Source of the DNA: Candidatus Levyibacteriota bacterium
GTDB lineage: Bacteria > Patescibacteriota > Microgenomatia > Levybacterales > UBA12049
Direction of reading: 5' to 3'
Assembly (NCBI GenBank): GCA_017991775.1
Contig: JAGOPV010000001.1
Span: 20,869-84,868 of the forward strand
DNA: 64,000 nucleotides
Under the pieces are notes generated by a model, which did not search any database, had not been told where the DNA came from, and was given only the letters and a program-made list of their open reading frames with translations. A program made the translations under genes and the position numbers. Positions 23,180 to 62,756 of this stretch are shown here, in pieces (within the stretch, counting starts at the first letter, position 1; every line of letters starts with the position of its first letter).

Positions 23180-24650
23180 GAAGAGTGAACTCTCTGAGCA
23201 AGATAAAACGATGCTTAAAGAGAAAAGGACCTTTTATGAATCACTAAGGGGTGATGAAGCCACAATTGATGCTGTGAATGGACTAATCGCAGAAGTAGAG
23301 CCGATAGATAAGTGGAGAGAAGTTGCCCGCAAGGCTCGCGTAGAGATAGAGACACTACCACCAGACATTCTTGAACGAGTATTTAACAAAGCAACGCCAT
23401 ATATCAAAAACCTCCCTGCTGGACATGGGAAGGGACATTTCCTTAGAGATACAATCAATGCCACTCTCCTACTCCAGGATCCCGCCATGAGCACATATCC
23501 ACCTGAGGAAGTCATGTCTGGCGTACTTGCAGCAATGTATCATGACATCGGCAATTCTGTCGTTAATAGATATGAGGAAATGAATCGATTTGCTGCACAT
23601 GGTGAAGTAGGAGCACATCTATTTGGAGATATAGCTAAGGATGTCATACCTCCAAATCTACTTAAAATGACTCAACTCTCAATTGCTGGACATACTCACT
23701 ATAGAGCAGATGCAATCATCTTGAGAGATAGCGAAAACGGTGAGCCCATACCTGTACCAGCCGGATCAATAGCTCTTGATAGAGATGGAAAGGAGATAAC
23801 TTCTCCTACTTACACCGGCGAAGTCCAAATTAAAAATACAGCAACTGGAAAGGTCAAGAGAAGGAACGCTGTTCGTCGAGTGCGCAAGATCCATGATGCT
23901 AAAATTGAAGATGGAGCCAAAACAGCTTTCTGGATATCTCGATGGACAGATAGGCTTGATACTCGCGGAGTATCACATGCCGTGAGACACATTATTACGA
24001 AGGCTAGTCCAACCAGCGACTTTGATGGTAAAGAATTTAATACGATCCACCCCGATGAGCAGACTGATTTCCAACGAGAATTTGAACCCCGAAGAAACCC
24101 AAATAGCAAAAATGTAATTGGACACTTCCTTCAATTGGCAGGCTCCGACACAGAGCGAGATGCCCAAGGAGGAAAAGGGTTTTATAACCAATACGATACT
24201 GATTATATGACTGAAAAACTTTTTGGACCCGAAGATCTAGTTATGAATGAACTAATACAAACCATCGAGAATGCGCCTGATACATTGTCTCGCAAGGATC
24301 AGACTGGAAAGGATTACATTCTGAAAGAAGGTATGGCGAAATTTGAAGCCCTAGCTCAACTCCTTGAACCTGCGCGTGATCTTGAAGGACAACTGGGGAA
24401 ATTAGGAGAAAAATTTGAAAAACTTGGTGAACAAAAATATGCCTGGGCACTTGGATTTAAGCAGCTTTTTGATAAGCTTTATCCTGAAACAGAGGCTAGG
24501 AAGACAACTAGTCTCAAAAATATTTCACCTCTTAATTTTGGAGGGAAGCCAACATCTGAAAGAGTAAATACCATTCTGGGAACTCATCTTTATGGAATAG
24601 CCCGAGCGGCTGAGGAACAATTCAAGCAAAAACCCCTAGCTACTTTATAA
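23091..24650 (+). CDS. HD-domain protein of the dGTPase/SAMHD1-like (dNTP triphosphohydrolase) type
   Basis: Motif series [10 protein letters not shown] .. YHDIGN(x17)HGEVGAHL .. [10 protein letters not shown] resembles H..HDxGH..HEQGS..DxxD of dNTP triphosphohydrolases; the second His of HDxGH is Asn here. Start taken at the internal ATG 23091; the track ORF starts at 22983 and would overlap the opposite-strand gene. Confidence 0.5.
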
Positions 24651-25535
24651 CCAGCCTTTTTTAGCTTTTGGCTTTGCTTCAAATTCTTCTAGAAGATCTT
24701 TCTGCCTCTTTGAGACATTCTTTGGGATAACTAATTTTATCTTCACGTAGTGATCGCCTTTACCTCCACCTCGAATTCGCTCGATTCCCTTGCCACGAAG
24801 CCTGATCAATGTCTCAGGCTGTGTCCCAGCTGGGATTTTGATAGTTACCTTACCTTCAACTGTCTCAACCTCTATTTCAGATCCTAAAACTGCCTGTGGA
24901 AATGAAATCTCTTCAGAGGTGACCACATCTGCACCCTCTCGTTGAAATCTTGGGTCTGAGGCGACATCAAAGACCACATCAAAACTATCAAAACGCATTC
25001 TTGTGCCAGTATCCACACCCGCAGGAACTTTAACAGTGGTATCTTTGCCTTCAACTGTTACTTTCTTTGTAACACCATTTACTGCCTCTTTAAATGTGAG
25101 TGCTATCGAATAAACAGCACGCCTTTGCTGTTGCCTTCCAAATGGCGAGCCTCCACCACCAAAGAATTGTTCAAAAATTTCAAATGGATCTGAGAAGCCA
25201 CCAAAATCAAAACCCTGTCCACCTTGTTGTCCATTAGTCGAGTAGGTATAGCTAAATGGACCGTACTGACCGCCTTGTCCCCCAAATCCTCCTTGTCCTG
25301 AGGTTGCCGAAGGATCAAAGGCTGCCGCACCATACTGATCATAAGTTTGACGCTTTTGCGCATCTGAGAGAACTTCATAGGCTTTCGTGATCTCTTTAAA
25401 TTTCTCTGTTCCCTCAGCCGTCTTATTACGGTCTGGGTGATACTGGAGTGCTAATTTTCGATACGCCTTTTTAATCTCATCTGCAGTTGAGGATTTAGAG
25501 ACACCTAATGTGGAATAAAAATCAGTAGAGGCCAT
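24645..25535 (-). CDS. dnaJ: DnaJ-family co-chaperone (J-domain, G/F region, C-terminal domains, no zinc finger; CbpA/type II-like)
   Basis: J-domain with HPD (YHPDRNK), G/F-rich stretch ([13 protein letters not shown]), and C-terminal beta domains. No CxxCxGxG repeats. Confidence 0.8.
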
Positions 25536-25541
25536 AATAGA

Positions 25542-25994
25542 TTATCGTTCTCTCGGCCTCCTGTGGGCAATCTTCTTTGGAGGTTGACGCTTAGCTGGAG
25601 CGAATAATACTCCACTACCCTCAAGTCTTTCCTGTGTTACTGAGGAGTTTAAACTAGGGTAAATTGGTCTTCCGGTGCCGTCATCTGCAAATCCTATCGG
25701 TGTTAGCCCATCTACAACCCCGTGACCTACACCATTTCCACTCTTACTATCCAGAGGTGACTGCGAGACTGATGGCGCCCCCTCACCGATCTCACTTTTT
25801 ATAACCGGTTGATTAATCACTGGGGATACAAACTTGGCAAGAGTAGGATTTACTTCACTTAATGGGGTATGCCGAGGTAAAATTCCCTGATCATCTAAGA
25901 GTTGAGCTTCATGGTCTGATACCCCAGCTTCAGATGCTTTTTCTTCAGGGATAAATACCCCATGAGGCTCTCTTTCTTCATTAGCTCTTATCAT
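25542..25994 (-). CDS. Hypothetical low-complexity protein between dnaK and dnaJ
   Basis: A 150-aa ORF fills the dnaK-dnaJ gap and overlaps the dnaK stop by 14 nt. It is P/G/S-rich and no domain was recognised. Confidence 0.3.
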
Positions 25995-27870
25995 CTACTA
26001 CTTCTCCTTCAACTGGCTCCTCTGATGATGGAGTCTCTGAAGAAGAGCTGTCAGCTGAATCCTGTGTCTCGGCAGGATTTGCTTTCGCCATTGCCTCACC
26101 GATTTTTTGAAGACTTTCTGAGAGCTCTGAAGTCTTTTGCTCGATATCTGACTTTGAACCAGACTCCAGAATATCTTTAAGGGCTTTTATCTTTTCCTCG
26201 ATCTCGGTCTTAAGACTATCCTCGATTTTACCCTCTGCGTCTTTTAGAGACTTCTCAGCAGTAAAGATAAGTGAATCAGCCATGTTCTTTGCCTCAATTG
26301 ACTCTTTCTTCTCTTCATCCTCTTTCGCATGAAGCTCAGCGTCTTTGGTCATCTTCTCTACTTCTTCTTTTGAAAGTCCAGTTGAGCCTGTGATCTTGAT
26401 ACTTTGCTCTTTTCCTGATGTCTTATCCTGAGCTTTTACATTCAAAATACCATTTGCATCGATATCAAAAGTCACCTCAACCTGAGGAACACCTCTAGGA
26501 GCTGGTGGGATACCATCGAGAACGAATCGACCAAGTGACTTGTTGTCAGCTGCCATAGGTCGTTCACCCTGAAGAACATTGATCTCAACCTGAGTCTGAT
26601 TATCCGCTGCAGTTGAATATACTTGTGATTTTGATGTTGGGATAGTGGTATTTCGAGCAATAAGTGCAGATGAAACACTTCCAAGCGTCTCAATACCAAG
26701 TGTTAATGGCGTAACGTCAAGCAAGAGCACATCTTTAACGTCGCCTGAAAGTACGCCGCCCTGAACTGCTGCTCCGATAGCTACTACTTCGTCTGGATTA
26801 ACAGACTTGTTAGGCTCTTTTCCAAAGAATTTAGAAACTGTCTCAACGATCTTTGGCATGCGCGTCATACCTCCAACCAAGACTACTTCATCAACATCTG
26901 AAGCTTTAATACCAGCGTCTTTGATAGCTTGCTCAACTGGCTTGAGTGTCTTTTGTACGAGCGAATCAACAAGCTGTTCAAGCTTTGCCCTTGTCAAAGT
27001 AAGTGTCAGGTGAAGTGGACCATTGGCACCCTGTGTGATAAATGGCTGATTGATTTGAGCTTCTTGACTACTTGAGAGTTCAATTTTTGCTTTCTCAGCT
27101 GACTCTTTAAGTCTTTGAAGTGCCTGTGGGTCTTGTCGAAGATCGACGTTGTTCTCTTTCTTAAATTCGTCAGCAAGATAATCGATCAAAACCTGATCAA
27201 AATCATCTCCACCAAGATGTGTATCACCATTAGTAGACTTAACCTCAGTTACGCCGTCTCCAAGTTCAAGAATTGAAATATCGAATGTACCTCCACCAAG
27301 ATCATAGACAGCAATAGTCTGAGCTTCTTTTTTATCAAGACCATACGCAAGCGCTGCAGCTGTAGGCTCATTGATAATACGCATCACTTCAAGTCCTGCG
27401 ATCTCTCCAGCCTGCTTTGTAGCCTGCCTCTGACTGTCGTCAAAATATGCAGGAACTGTAATAACAGCTTGTGTAACTTTTTCTCCGAGATAGTTTTCAG
27501 CATCTGCCTTGATCTTTTGCAGAATCATTGCGGAGATCTCTTGTGGGGTGTATGTCTTTCCATCAACCTCAACGATAGCCATATCATCTCTACCAGACTT
27601 TACAACGTATGGGAGTAGCTTCATGTCATTTTTGACTGTTGGGTCAGACAACTTTTTACCCATAAGTCTCTTTACTGATGAGATGGTCTCCTTAGGCTTT
27701 AATACCATCTGACGCTTTGCTACATCTCCAACGACGTGTGTCTTTGGATCCACAACTGATGGAATAACATTACGGCCTTCTGCTGAGTGGATCACCTTTG
27801 GCGATCCGCCTTCCATAACAGCCACACATGAGTTTGTTGTACCTAAATCAATACCAATTATTTTTGCCAT
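25981..27870 (-). CDS. dnaK: Chaperone DnaK (Hsp70)
   Basis: [18 protein letters not shown].., DLGGGTFD.. and a C-terminal lid with an EEVD-less acidic end. An AAGGAAA SD lies upstream of the start at 27870. Confidence 0.95.
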
Positions 27871-27874
27871 AATT

Positions 27875-28348
27875 TTATTTTCCTTTTCCCACAATTACTT
27901 GTGCGGGTCTAAGCAATATATCATGCAACAAGTAGCCTTTGCGCACCTCTTGTATGACAATTCCTTCTTTTCCTTCAGCTGTCGACACAACTTCCATTTG
28001 GTTAGGATCGAAATCCTCTCCAACAGTCTCAAGAGCTAGAACACCTTCGCTTTTTAAAATATCTTTGCACTGATTAATTCCCAGAACCAGACTCTGATTT
28101 GGCTCGTGATGATTTGCTAATTCCAATGTATCCAAAACAGGTAGAAATCTCAAGAGCAAATCCTTATTTGCACTCACAATTATATTACGCCTGTCATCTC
28201 GAACTCTCTTCTCAAGATTTTGATAGTCAGCAAGAGCTCTTTTGTATTTATGCTCCCAATCAGATACTTTCTCTTCTTCTCCATCAAGAACTCCCTCTTC
28301 TATTACTTCCTCTTCCAGATCTAAATTTTTTACGTCGTCGTCATTCAT
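27875..28348 (-). CDS. grpE: Nucleotide exchange factor GrpE
   Basis: GrpE coiled-coil and beta domain (..[18 protein letters not shown]..). Start placed at MNDDDV (28348), preceded by GGGGAG. The ORF can extend to in-frame ATGs at 28366, 28387 and 28408 that are created by the heptamer repeat. Confidence 0.8.
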
Positions 28349-28362
28349 ACTTATTTTACTCC

Positions 28363-28404
28363 CCATTTGCCATTTGCCATTTGCCATTTGCCATTTGCCA
28401 TTTG
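28363..28404. repeat. Perfect heptanucleotide microsatellite (CCATTTG)x6, = (CAAATGG)x6 on the coding strand of grpE
   Basis: Read directly: ccatttg repeated six times, followed by cca. It lies in the hrcA-grpE intergenic region / grpE 5' end and generates three alternative ATGs. Confidence 0.9.
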
Positions 28405-28417
28405 CCATTTGCCAAGC

Positions 28418-29152
28418 CTACCAACCCTTTGCAACTGATTCAATAAGATCTCCAAAGTATCGCACAGTTGGGATAACTTGTGTGTAGTTAAGCCTGACTG
28501 GACCAATAACTCCTATATCTCCAGATACATGCAGTGGAGTCTCAAAGTGCGTATAGACAAAACTATATGGACCTCGAAGTCTTGCACCAAGATCATCACC
28601 CATAACAACGTGAATCTCTTCATCGTCGCCTTGCATTCTCTTGCACATATCCAAGAACCATTCGTATTCATCCAATGCTGAAAGAAGAGTCTTTGTGATA
28701 TCGATATCATAGAACTCTGGCATCTCAAGAATATTTGCATACCCTGAAGCATAAATATTACCTTCAGAAGTCGCTATGAATGCAAGTGCACCGGTCTTAT
28801 CTGCGAGAGACTTTGTAGCCTCTTTCAAAAAGCGTTGCATTTGCTCACGATAATCCCAAACTTTCTCTTTAAGAGCTACTTCTTCAACAGTTGAGAGCTC
28901 TTTTTCTTTCATCAACTCACGAACATAAAATCTCATCCCTTTTGGAGATGGCGCTCTTCCAGCTGACGAGTGGGGCTTATGAAGATATCCTGACTCAGTG
29001 AGACGGACCATCTCATTCCTAATCGTCGCAGGAGAGGCGCTCAAATTATATTTTTTCTCGAGAGTCTCTGATCCTACTGGTTCTGCCGTGTTAATGTACT
29101 CCTCAATGATCGCTCTTAAGATTTCGATCTGTCGCTGCGTTAAATTGTGCAT
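28418..29152 (-). CDS. hrcA: Heat-inducible transcription repressor HrcA (short form)
   Basis: N-terminal winged HTH (LTQRQIEILRAIIEEYINTAEPVGSETL) plus HrcA C-domain; 244 aa; sits at the head of the grpE-dnaK operon. Confidence 0.8.
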   Translation of the reverse strand: MHNLTQRQIEILRAIIEEYINTAEPVGSETLEKKYNLSASPATIRNEMVRLTESGYLHKPHSSAGRAPSPKGMRFYVRELMKEKELSTVEEVALKEKVWDYREQMQRFLKEATKSLADKTGALAFIATSEGNIYASGYANILEMPEFYDIDITKTLLSALDEYEWFLDMCKRMQGDDEEIHVVMGDDLGARLRGPYSFVYTHFETPLHVSGDIGVIGPVRLNYTQVIPTVRYFGDLIESVAKGW

Positions 29153-29178: not shown

Positions 29179-29205
29179 TTAGCAGTATAGTAACATGACT
29201 GCTAT
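29179..29205. promoter_or_regulatory. CIRCE-like inverted repeat TTAGCAGTA-N9-GACTGCTAT upstream of hrcA
   Basis: 7/9 + 7/9 match to the CIRCE consensus TTAGCACTC-N9-GAGTGCTAA, located 27-53 nt upstream of the hrcA start on the minus strand. Confidence 0.5.
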
Positions 29206-29281
29206 TCCTTGTCAAGACATTATTTTACAGCAAAATAGCATCTTTCTTGCCTCGATTAGACAAATATCCTAGACTGTCTTT

Positions 29282-48798: not shown

Positions 48799-49847
48799 AC
48801 ATCCTTGCTATTGAATCCTCCTGTGATGAAACTGGTGCTGCAGTACTCACCCAACACGGAGATCAAATCACAATTCTCTCAAACATTATTTCGACCTCAC
48901 TTGAGCTCCATGCCAAAACAGGGGGCATTATCCCAGAAGTTGCAGCCCGTGAGCAAGTGAAATTTATCATCCCAGTTATCCAAGAAGCACTAGGGAAGGC
49001 ATTCTCCTATACCCTCAGTAGCACACCACCACCAATCGATGCAATTGCAGTCACTTATGGCCCAGGACTAATTGGGTCACTTCTTGTGGGAGTAGAGACT
49101 GCGAAAACTCTATCATTACTTTGGAATATCCCTATCATTCCCGTTAATCACATGTATGGCCATATTTATGCCAATTTTATACATGGAAAAGGAATTGAAT
49201 TGCCTGCTATCGCACTTGTTGTATCCGGAGGACACACGGACCTTATCTTCCTCAAGTCACATACTGAAATTGAGCATATTGGCCAAACACGAGACGATGC
49301 AGCTGGCGAAGCATTTGACAAGATTGGAAGATTGCTTGGCCTTCCATATCCCGCAGGTCCAACAATCTCAAAGTTAGCAATCAATGGTGACCATACATCA
49401 TTTAATTTGCCTAGGCCTATGATTGGCTCTCATGATTTTGACTTCAGCTTTAGCGGTCTCAAGACCTCAGTGCTAAATGTCCTAAAAACTCAAAAGCTGG
49501 ACTTTGCTAACGAAGATTTTGCAATAAATAATCAGCAGGTCCTAAGTGATCTCTGCGCTAGCGTACAGTATGCCATCGTCAATGTCTTAACAAGAAAGAC
49601 ACTCAAAGCAGTTGAGAAATATCGACCAAAGACTCTCCTCGTTGGTGGAGGTGTTGCAGCCAATACTGCGCTAAAAGAATCTCTTACCTCAGCAATAAAA
49701 AATGACTGGCCTGAGATAGTCATCCACATTCCAGATCGATCACTCTGCACAGATAACGCAGCGATGATTGCAGCCCACGCTTTCTTCCTAACCCCACAAA
49801 AGGATATAAACACAATTACAGCCGCGCCTGGACTAAGCTACATCTAG
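48795..49847 (+). CDS. tsaD: tRNA N6-adenosine threonylcarbamoyltransferase TsaD (Kae1/YgjD)
   Basis: MNILAIESSCDETGAAVL.., metal-binding HMYGH.., and C-terminal LVGGGVAAN. Confidence 0.9.
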   Translation: MNILAIESSCDETGAAVLTQHGDQITILSNIISTSLELHAKTGGIIPEVAAREQVKFIIPVIQEALGKAFSYTLSSTPPPIDAIAVTYGPGLIGSLLVGVETAKTLSLLWNIPIIPVNHMYGHIYANFIHGKGIELPAIALVVSGGHTDLIFLKSHTEIEHIGQTRDDAAGEAFDKIGRLLGLPYPAGPTISKLAINGDHTSFNLPRPMIGSHDFDFSFSGLKTSVLNVLKTQKLDFANEDFAINNQQVLSDLCASVQYAIVNVLTRKTLKAVEKYRPKTLLVGGGVAANTALKESLTSAIKNDWPEIVIHIPDRSLCTDNAAMIAAHAFFLTPQKDINTITAAPGLSYI

Positions 49848-62612: not shown

Positions 62613-62756
62613 ATTAAGAGAGGTCGTCAAACATACGGACTACGCTCAAAATTTCATTAAGAGAGGTCGTCCCACAAGGGGACTACGCTCAAAATTTCAT
62701 TAAGAGAGGTCGTCCCACAAGGGGACTACGCTCAAAATTTCATTAAGAGAGGTCGT
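62613..62756. repeat. 43-bp tandem repeat, 3.35 copies (attaagagaggtcgtc-N8-ggactacgctcaaaatttc)
   Basis: Copies at 62613, 62656, 62699 and a partial copy at 62742. Copies 2 and 3 are identical, with a GTCCC-acaag-GGGAC hairpin. Copy 1 differs only in the 8-nt core. The partial copy encodes the last codons and the stop of the ABC-transporter gene. Confidence 0.85.

Follow-up and report, generated by a model that had tools for sequence, protein, structure and literature searches.

A length-variable heptanucleotide array between hrcA and grpE in a Levybacteria heat-shock operon

The heat-shock operon and its hrcA-grpE spacer

The window, by which we mean the whole 64-kb stretch of DNA analyzed here, carries on its minus strand the gene order hrcA-grpE-dnaK-orf-dnaJ, which is also found in the related contigs L001-L003. 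The hrcA gene (28418..29152, minus strand) encodes a protein of 244 aa that matched Pfam PF01628 (6.7e-18) and ends at the TAG at 28420-28418; the protein is short, and its wHTH domain scored 19.3 bits, under the Pfam cut-off of 21. Downstream lies grpE (27875..28348, minus strand; Pfam PF01025, 1.7e-31), which encodes 157 aa when read from the ATG at 28348, followed by dnaK (25981..27870, minus strand; Pfam HSP70 PF00012, 3e-256), which starts 4 nt past the grpE stop codon (TAA-AATT-ATG). This tight grpE-dnaK junction is of the same kind as the hrcA-grpE junction of the sister strains described below. An ORF of 150 aa without a Pfam match (25542..25994, minus strand) separates dnaK from dnaJ (24645..25535, minus strand; Pfam PF00226/PF01556). 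This ORF overlaps the end of dnaK by about 13 nt, and in close relatives (L001-L003, L013) the position between dnaK and dnaJ is likewise occupied by an ORF, with a length of 149 to 190 aa.

The operon promoter and operator were located at 29179..29215 (minus strand) from a promoter scan, an inverted repeat and the sequence itself. The promoter is of the sigma-70 type (29215-29187) and consists of TTGACA (29215-29210), a 17-nt spacer and a TG-extended TACTAT (29192-29187), matching at 10 of 12 positions plus the TG. CIRCE is an inverted repeat at the promoter with the consensus TTAGCACTC-N9-GAGTGCTAA. At 29205-29179, overlapping the -10 hexamer, we found a CIRCE-like 9-N9-9 inverted repeat, aTAGCAgTC-N9-tAcTGCTAA, in which 14 of the 18 positions follow the consensus and a compensatory swap turns C-G into G-C; closer CIRCE copies occupy the same site in relatives. 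The locus combines the gene order and the promoter-associated CIRCE repeat that define an HrcA/CIRCE heat-shock operon, and the Pfam assignments and the CIRCE-like repeat over the promoter bear out the HrcA/CIRCE operon described by the initial annotation. A separate search with the CIRCE consensus, allowing up to 3 mismatches, returned only a plus-strand match inside tsaD (49450-49476; TTAGCGGTC-N9-CAGTGCTAA, 3 mismatches), which is probably due to chance; 3 of 100 shuffles yielded such a match.

Between hrcA and grpE we found a heptanucleotide array, (GCAAATG)x7 plus partial units, at 28363..28414 on the minus strand. TRF reported it at 28363-28414 with a period of 7, 7.4 copies, 100% matches and a score of 104. 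An exact unit search on the minus strand placed the first full unit at 28412-28406 and the last at 28370-28364. These data confirm the presence of a tandem heptamer between the hrcA stop codon and the grpE start, but the number of full units is seven in whichever register is chosen, not the six perfect units counted originally. A double-unit pattern was found 6 times against 0.61 expected, a count that was reached in 0 of 100 shuffles, and in the 64 kb this was the only perfect short-unit array of more than 3.2 copies reported by TRF. The array therefore has the perfect unit of 5 to 11 nt and the length beyond chance that characterize long SSRs.

The array is embedded in a 69-nt intercistronic spacer (28349..28417, minus strand) composed of GCTTG, the array and GGGGAGTAAAATAAGT, and the interval flagged at the outset corresponds exactly to this spacer, from the hrcA TAG to the ATG at 28348. 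The fixed 3' flank of the array (28349..28364, minus strand) contains an SD-like GGGGAG (28364-28359), a -10-like TAAAAT (28358-28353) and two TAA triplets (28358-28356 and 28353-28351), and the distance from the end of the array to the ATG at 28348 is 15 nt. The flank occurs once in the window and is kept in the contigs L010-L013, save for one A/G change in L010. Within the 64 kb, a search for the same heptamer elsewhere, as had been suggested, gave no second GCAAATG locus, and the unit is reused nowhere else in the window. We considered whether the array had been copied or transposed from another site in the window, and this was ruled out because the flank and the unit are both unique there. 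The unit itself contains one ATG and no stop codon in any frame.

A second heptamer array, degenerate and composed of about 5 AATATCA-like units, lies at 1059-1095 of the window on the plus strand. Its start coincides with the stop codon of an AlaRS-fragment ORF (89-1060), and the co-directional 96-nt spacer that contains it leads to an ORF of 784 aa, for which Baseplate_J is a weak match; a direct repeat (TTTGAAAyTGGTATyTATTT, about 21 nt) comes after the array. An exact protein look-up with the AlaRS-fragment ORF returned no matches.

Allelic variation and the start of GrpE

We compared the locus among closely related contigs. The array was present in the window and in three other NCBI metagenome assemblies (L010, L011 and L012), and two additional runs gave Logan contigs (L005, L006 and L013) that end or begin inside it; its presence in independent assemblies rules out an assembly artifact. 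The Logan contigs break after 27 to 30 array bases (about 4 units), as expected of assemblies made with k=31, for which the array is a break point. The complete alleles contained 7 copies in the window, L010 and L011, and 12 copies in L012, where the spacer reaches 104 nt. By exact protein look-up, the HrcA protein was identical on 12 contigs. Seven contigs with the identical HrcA protein (L001-L004 and L007-L009) were free of the array and instead had a junction of 4 nt, TAA-AAAT-ATG. These sisters differ from the window at 23 to 36 of 735 nt in hrcA, all of the differences being synonymous, and at 27 to 34 of 474 nt in grpE, so that HrcA is 100% conserved in protein across strains that are 3 to 5% apart in nucleotides. 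Exact look-ups for further alleles with the 157-aa GrpE, with DnaK read from the ATG at 27870 and with DnaK read from the TTG at 27894 returned no matches.

In the nearest outgroups (L134-L137, with HrcA 78 to 82% identical), the spacers were 6 to 12 nt long and contained no repeats. As the sisters are array-free and the outgroup spacers are short and repeat-less, the array is a derived, lineage-specific feature. The change from 7 to 12 copies has occurred while the adjoining hrcA sequence differs by at most 2 of 229 nt, and therefore the length of the array evolves faster than the sequence around it. Such length polymorphism between close genomes, seen on four complete alleles, together with the absence of the array from the sisters, constitutes the marks of a slippage-prone SSR and supports the slipped-strand variation proposed by the initial annotation. 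With only four complete alleles (7, 7, 7 and 12), the sample amounts to effectively two length states, and the three 7-copy alleles, whose hrcA sequences are nearly identical, may be identical by descent; the mutation rate is therefore poorly constrained. L010 looks recombinant, because its grpE differs from that of the window at 12 of 139 nt.

These observations agree with an account that we consider probable, in which the array is a young and nearly neutral heptanucleotide SSR of the transcribed hrcA-grpE spacer. Replication slippage would be the generating process, and expansion in one Levybacteria sub-lineage would have turned the ancestral 4-nt coupled junction TAA-AAAT-ATG into the present 69-nt spacer. 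The ancestral junction sequence TGGTAAA is one base away from the unit when the latter is read as TGGCAAA, which we regard as a resemblance only.

The position of the GrpE start determines what such an expansion could do. The sister GrpE proteins are 157 aa long and start with MNNDDV, 4 nt past the hrcA stop codon, at the ATG homologous to 28348, and the conserved GrpE N terminus, MN(N/D)DDV, begins at this same ATG. The choice of 28348 as the likely true start was therefore sound, and the array lies outside the conserved GrpE protein. The ancestral start has been retained, now with the SD-like GGGGAG 10 nt upstream of it.

The initial annotation had correctly listed array ATGs in frame with grpE, at 28408, 28387 and 28366, the open frame extending over 27875..28408; it had also stated that the gain or loss of any unit causes a frameshift, and this does not hold for grpE. 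Because the array precedes the conserved start and is followed by an invariant 3' flank, the frame of its last ATG (28366) matches that of grpE whatever the number of copies. The other two array frames end at the TAA triplets at 28358-28356 and 28353-28351, which are 7 and 2 nt before the ATG at 28348. At 7 copies, the frame of the hrcA stop codon is also that of grpE. At the upstream end, the first ATG of the array lies 9 nt past the hrcA stop codon and shares the grpE frame only if the copy number n is 1 mod 3, which is the case for n = 7 and is not for n = 12; this is all that copy number decides. From this frame arithmetic, no copy number can frameshift grpE off.

Gene callers have nonetheless used the array as coding sequence. 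The NCBI annotation of GrpE in the Candidatus Levybacteria MAG (CPR/Patescibacteria; P0001) has 177 aa from the ATG at 28408, with the array translated as MANGKWQMANGKWQMGSKIS, and for the 12-copy allele (P0121) GrpE was called at 191 aa from a TTG. Taken at face value, these calls would mean that GrpE is made from an upstream start with a variable (MANGKWQ)n N-terminal tail, a reading that the open frame from 28408 into grpE permits and that a weak AGG 8 nt before this ATG might serve. However, the sisters cannot encode such an extension, with the hrcA stop codon 4 nt before their start, and it is absent from the GrpE relatives P0002-P0004 and P0122. In the 12-copy allele the first array ATG does not share the grpE frame, which left the caller with the TTG. 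Stop-free heptamer arrays, moreover, always give such ORFs: a protein search with the (MANGKWQ)n-GrpE N terminus found no new GrpE alleles, its only matches being spurious hypothetical proteins read from GCAAATG-like arrays of unrelated organisms. We consider a coding role quite unlikely, and the 177-aa and 191-aa annotations are most likely over-extended starts that contain a translated repeat which close relatives cannot encode.

We also considered the array and its flank as a source of transcription signals. The promoter scan found a promoter-like ATGGCA-16-TAAAAT at 28380-28353 with 9 of 12 matches, in which the ATGGCA -35, the 16-nt spacer and the TAAAAT -10 keep their spacing independently of copy number. 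If active, this element would provide HrcA/CIRCE-independent, near-leaderless grpE-dnaK-dnaJ transcripts, and the sisters have no qualifying -10 hexamer at this spot. The genome as sampled by the window might accommodate such an architecture. A TATAAT-like hexamer ending 5 to 12 nt before the ATG was found for 20 of 53 long ORFs, compared with 1 or 2 at control offsets, which is the pattern of leaderless-type genes; SD sequences are rare in the window, GGAG or GAGG preceding the first ATG by 3 to 14 nt for 4 of the 53. These counts suggest that leaderless or very short-leader mRNAs may be widespread, with tight junctions of 1 to 4 nt for internal operon genes. Against an internal promoter, the -35 is weak, the gap between the hexamer and the ATG is 4 nt, under the 6- to 12-nt mode, and promoter-like matches in the region occur at the rate of shuffled sequence (4 found versus 4.1). 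We therefore regard an internal promoter here as very improbable.

Classical contingency loci are hypermutable SSRs located in the coding sequence or in the -35/-10 gap of surface or restriction-modification genes. The array shares with them its place beside a gene start, but the conserved start, downstream of it, leaves it outside the coding frame, and it separates no functional promoter hexamers, the operon promoter (29215-29187) being upstream of hrcA. It allows no ON/OFF frameshift, and the genes concerned form a core chaperone operon. Of the proposal that this is a contingency-locus-style repeat, what remains is a length-polymorphic SSR; a reading as a contingency switch is not supported.

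Heptamer arrays at the junctions of related operons

We examined the same junction in 80 metagenomic loci of relatives (L134-L213), whose HrcA proteins are 52 to 82% identical to that of the window. Of the 47 distinct hrcA-grpE junctions, 27 were tight, with genes that overlap or stand less than 25 nt apart, and the other 20 had spacers of 25 nt or more; with duplicates removed, 14 of the 20 distinct long spacers were heptamer-periodic at individual significance. In the long hrcA-grpE spacers among 64 relatives' junctions, with duplicates included, the pooled identity was 0.546 at lag 7 and 0.493 at lag 14, compared with a lag-7 identity of 0.279 in a control set of 69 intergenic regions. Average intergenic DNA showed no lag-7 excess. 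Among tandem arrays in 211 kb, 31 had a period of 7, compared with 5, 9, 0 and 0 for periods of 5, 6, 8 and 9.

The periodicity is not special to the hrcA-grpE junction. This possibility was ruled out by arrays that also precede hrcA and dnaK, and by the array in another spacer of the window; in the relatives, arrays reach up to the hrcA, grpE and dnaK start codons. Examples are found in the spacer after hrcA of L149, at 559-599, 1327-1392 and 1888-1928 of L194, at 2231-2276 and 2743-2826 of L203, and at 2219-2272 of L205. Some of the relatives' arrays form inverted pairs, which could fold into hairpins. The units are unrelated to each other (AAAGTTG, TGACAAT, AAAAATC, ATATAAA, AGTATTA, GGAAAAT, TAAATTG/CAAATAG and others), and many of the junction units contain stop codons and no ATG. 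On a tree of HrcA, array-bearing and tight junctions were interleaved, and the arrays have therefore been gained and lost repeatedly.

The initial annotation had called the repeat unexpected on a core chaperone operon. This view is weakened by the finding that heptamer spacers are common in relatives at this junction and at hrcA and dnaK. As the units are unrelated and their phylogenetic distribution is scattered, a general mutational or architectural habit of Levybacteria/Microgenomates fits better than a dedicated contingency locus. On these grounds the perfect GCAAATG array is a young case of a general genome habit, not a special device of the operon. Taken alone, it is an ordinary, if unusually clean, bacterial microsatellite; the wider pattern is that most long hrcA-grpE spacers, and many hrcA and dnaK leaders, in Levybacteria and their relatives are built of 7-nt repeats.

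The hrcA-grpE spacers of L139, L188 and L144 contained GC-richer palindromic inserts without heptamers (CTGTCATCCTGAGGCACAG...CTGTGCTCAGTATGACAG; ...GCTCAGGC...GCTGAGCGAAGTCGAAGC), which resemble small repetitive hairpin elements.

Possible effects on translation and known heptamer repeats

Ribosomes leaving hrcA would encounter an AUG every 7 nt across the array, and each of these AUGs would either read into grpE or terminate 2 to 7 nt before the grpE AUG. In such an AUG relay, suggested by the frame logic above, coupling between hrcA and grpE would be handed across the insert. The genome is apparently SD-poor, and so the mode of grpE initiation after loss of the tight junction matters. In our best reading, the array belongs to the known class of long SSRs and is at most a tuner of hrcA-grpE translational coupling; it would be near neutral, and its effect on the operon is probably small.

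A stronger version of this idea is that the length and phase (n mod 3) of the array set the efficiency of re-initiation from hrcA into grpE and dnaK, with slippage yielding a heritable, graded ratio of chaperone to repressor, as in a rheostat-type contingency locus like hmw or Moraxella uspA2. Copy number is indeed polymorphic (7 versus 12), the first array AUG is in frame only at n = 1 mod 3 with the other frames ending 7 and 2 nt before grpE, and in a genome that uses little SD and has many tight junctions and leaderless starts, changes in the spacer could matter. Precedents for graded control by SSRs in a 5'-UTR are described in PMC12721329 and, for the AGAT repeats of uspA2, cited in PMC4679880. 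However, the units at the same junction in relatives are unrelated, and many have stop codons and no ATG, which argues against the AUG relay as a conserved arrangement. The alleles represent only two lengths, and it is not obvious why a core chaperone operon that HrcA controls by feedback would need stochastic tuning. A tunable coupler is, in our view, a minor though real possibility.

The neutral element of the favored account also meets objections. Arrays of 30 to 80 nt persist at the same junctions in many lineages, in streamlined genomes with short junctions, and selection could be responsible; a unit with an ATG and without stop codons, next to a flank whose stops end both wrong frames immediately ahead of grpE, looks suspiciously convenient. 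A broader alternative would accordingly treat heptamer arrays as a selected class of leader and intercistronic sequences in SD-poor, leaderless-prone CPR genomes, with the copy number and phase of (GCAAATG)n tuning GrpE and DnaK against HrcA. The arrays would then arise repeatedly before the starts of hrcA, grpE and dnaK, and could offer ribosomes an unstructured track for standby or re-initiation, or provide a platform for S1- or Csp-like proteins. We hold this alternative to be unlikely.

A slippage-born SSR is also what comparison with known repeats suggests. As reported in PMC4679880 and PMC4692102, Mrazek, Guo and Shah (2007) found heptanucleotides to be the most abundant class of long SSR in most prokaryotic genomes, and polymerase slippage with a footprint bias was proposed as the cause of the heptamer excess. 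The array shares with these long SSRs (LSSR; 5 to 11 nt) a 7-nt unit, perfection, an intergenic position, a length beyond chance and length variability, and in related loci period 7 likewise far exceeds periods 5, 6, 8 and 9. It differs in that the arrays here form intercistronic spacers inside a core heat-shock operon. Our literature search found no paper linking heptamer repeats with CPR/Patescibacteria, to which the present data extend the unexplained bacterial excess of heptamer repeats.

In Haemophilus influenzae, the (ATCTTTC)n repeats in the 5'-UTR of hmw1/hmw2 are a phase-variable heptanucleotide SSR (PMC12721329). Like the array, they are heptamer SSRs that are transcribed ahead of a start codon and whose copy number differs from strain to strain. 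The hmw repeats, however, number 11 to 63 copies, control a surface adhesin and, by pairing with a G-rich segment, fold into a long hairpin targeted by RNase III (PMC12721329), whereas the array has 7 to 12 copies ahead of housekeeping chaperones and no pairing partner or structure was found for it. Folding of the spacer RNA gave no excess structure relative to shuffles (z = +0.54 for 171 nt and -0.71 for 72 nt), the MFE being no better than that of the shuffles, and an Rfam search of the spacer matched no family; the hairpin mechanism of hmw thus does not apply here.

Direct TAACTGA heptamers just upstream of start codons have been described in marine Beggiatoaceae, some Cyanobacteria and some Bacteroidetes, and binding of S1, Csp or CsrA to them was proposed (MacGregor 2015, PMC4679880). 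Both TAACTGA and the arrays considered here lie a few nucleotides upstream of starts, essential genes included, in SD-rare genomes. By analogy, the GCAAATG array might be a multivalent mRNA binding platform for S1, a cold-shock protein or a CsrA-like protein, both the idea and the candidate proteins coming from the Beggiatoaceae repeats (PMC4679880); the array is unstructured and ends 15 nt upstream of the start codon, and its period of 7 nt is similar to Csp footprints. However, a single TAACTGA unit is used at 169 loci, usually in 2 to 6 copies, whereas GCAAATG occupies one locus in 64 kb and is not reused there, and the homologous junctions of relatives use different, unrelated units, which argues against a sequence-specific reader. 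We give a binding platform very little credence. The cyanobacterial STRR and the GGGNATC repeats of Xanthomonas and Nostoc are intergenic heptamers, at times within operons (pecE-pecF), with extensive length variation (PMC4692102). They resemble the present arrays in their intergenic position and in the occurrence of some inverted pairs, as in several relatives here, but they are G-rich, G-quadruplex-prone and genome-wide, while GCAAATG is A-rich, not G4-forming and at a single locus. The natural series of 0, 7 and 12 copies in this lineage is well suited to testing the effect of array length on translational coupling.

Two further observations concern other repeats. Between two minus-strand ORFs, at 62613-62756 of the window (plus strand), lies a 43-bp tandem repeat with 3.3 copies at 95% identity (ATTAAGAGAGGTCGTCCCACAAGGGGACTACGCTCAAAATTTC); it has no spacers and is therefore not CRISPR-like, and each unit contains a small GTCCC/GGGAC hairpin. 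Among GTDB species representatives (L014-L133), exact (GCAAATG)x3 or longer arrays occurred in at least 120 contig stretches from many phyla. In the matches listed, GCAAATG often stood within long mixed arrays (with GCAGATG, GCGAATG, GCAAGTG, GCTAATG and others), and some MAGs carried it at many loci: the Anaerolineae H67_697 on at least 9 contigs, and CG2_30_64_16 and the Thermoflexia CSMAG_2276 on at least 5 each. In 11 of 127 cases among these matches, the reverse strand, (CATTTGC)n, was directly upstream of AGGAGG and a start codon.
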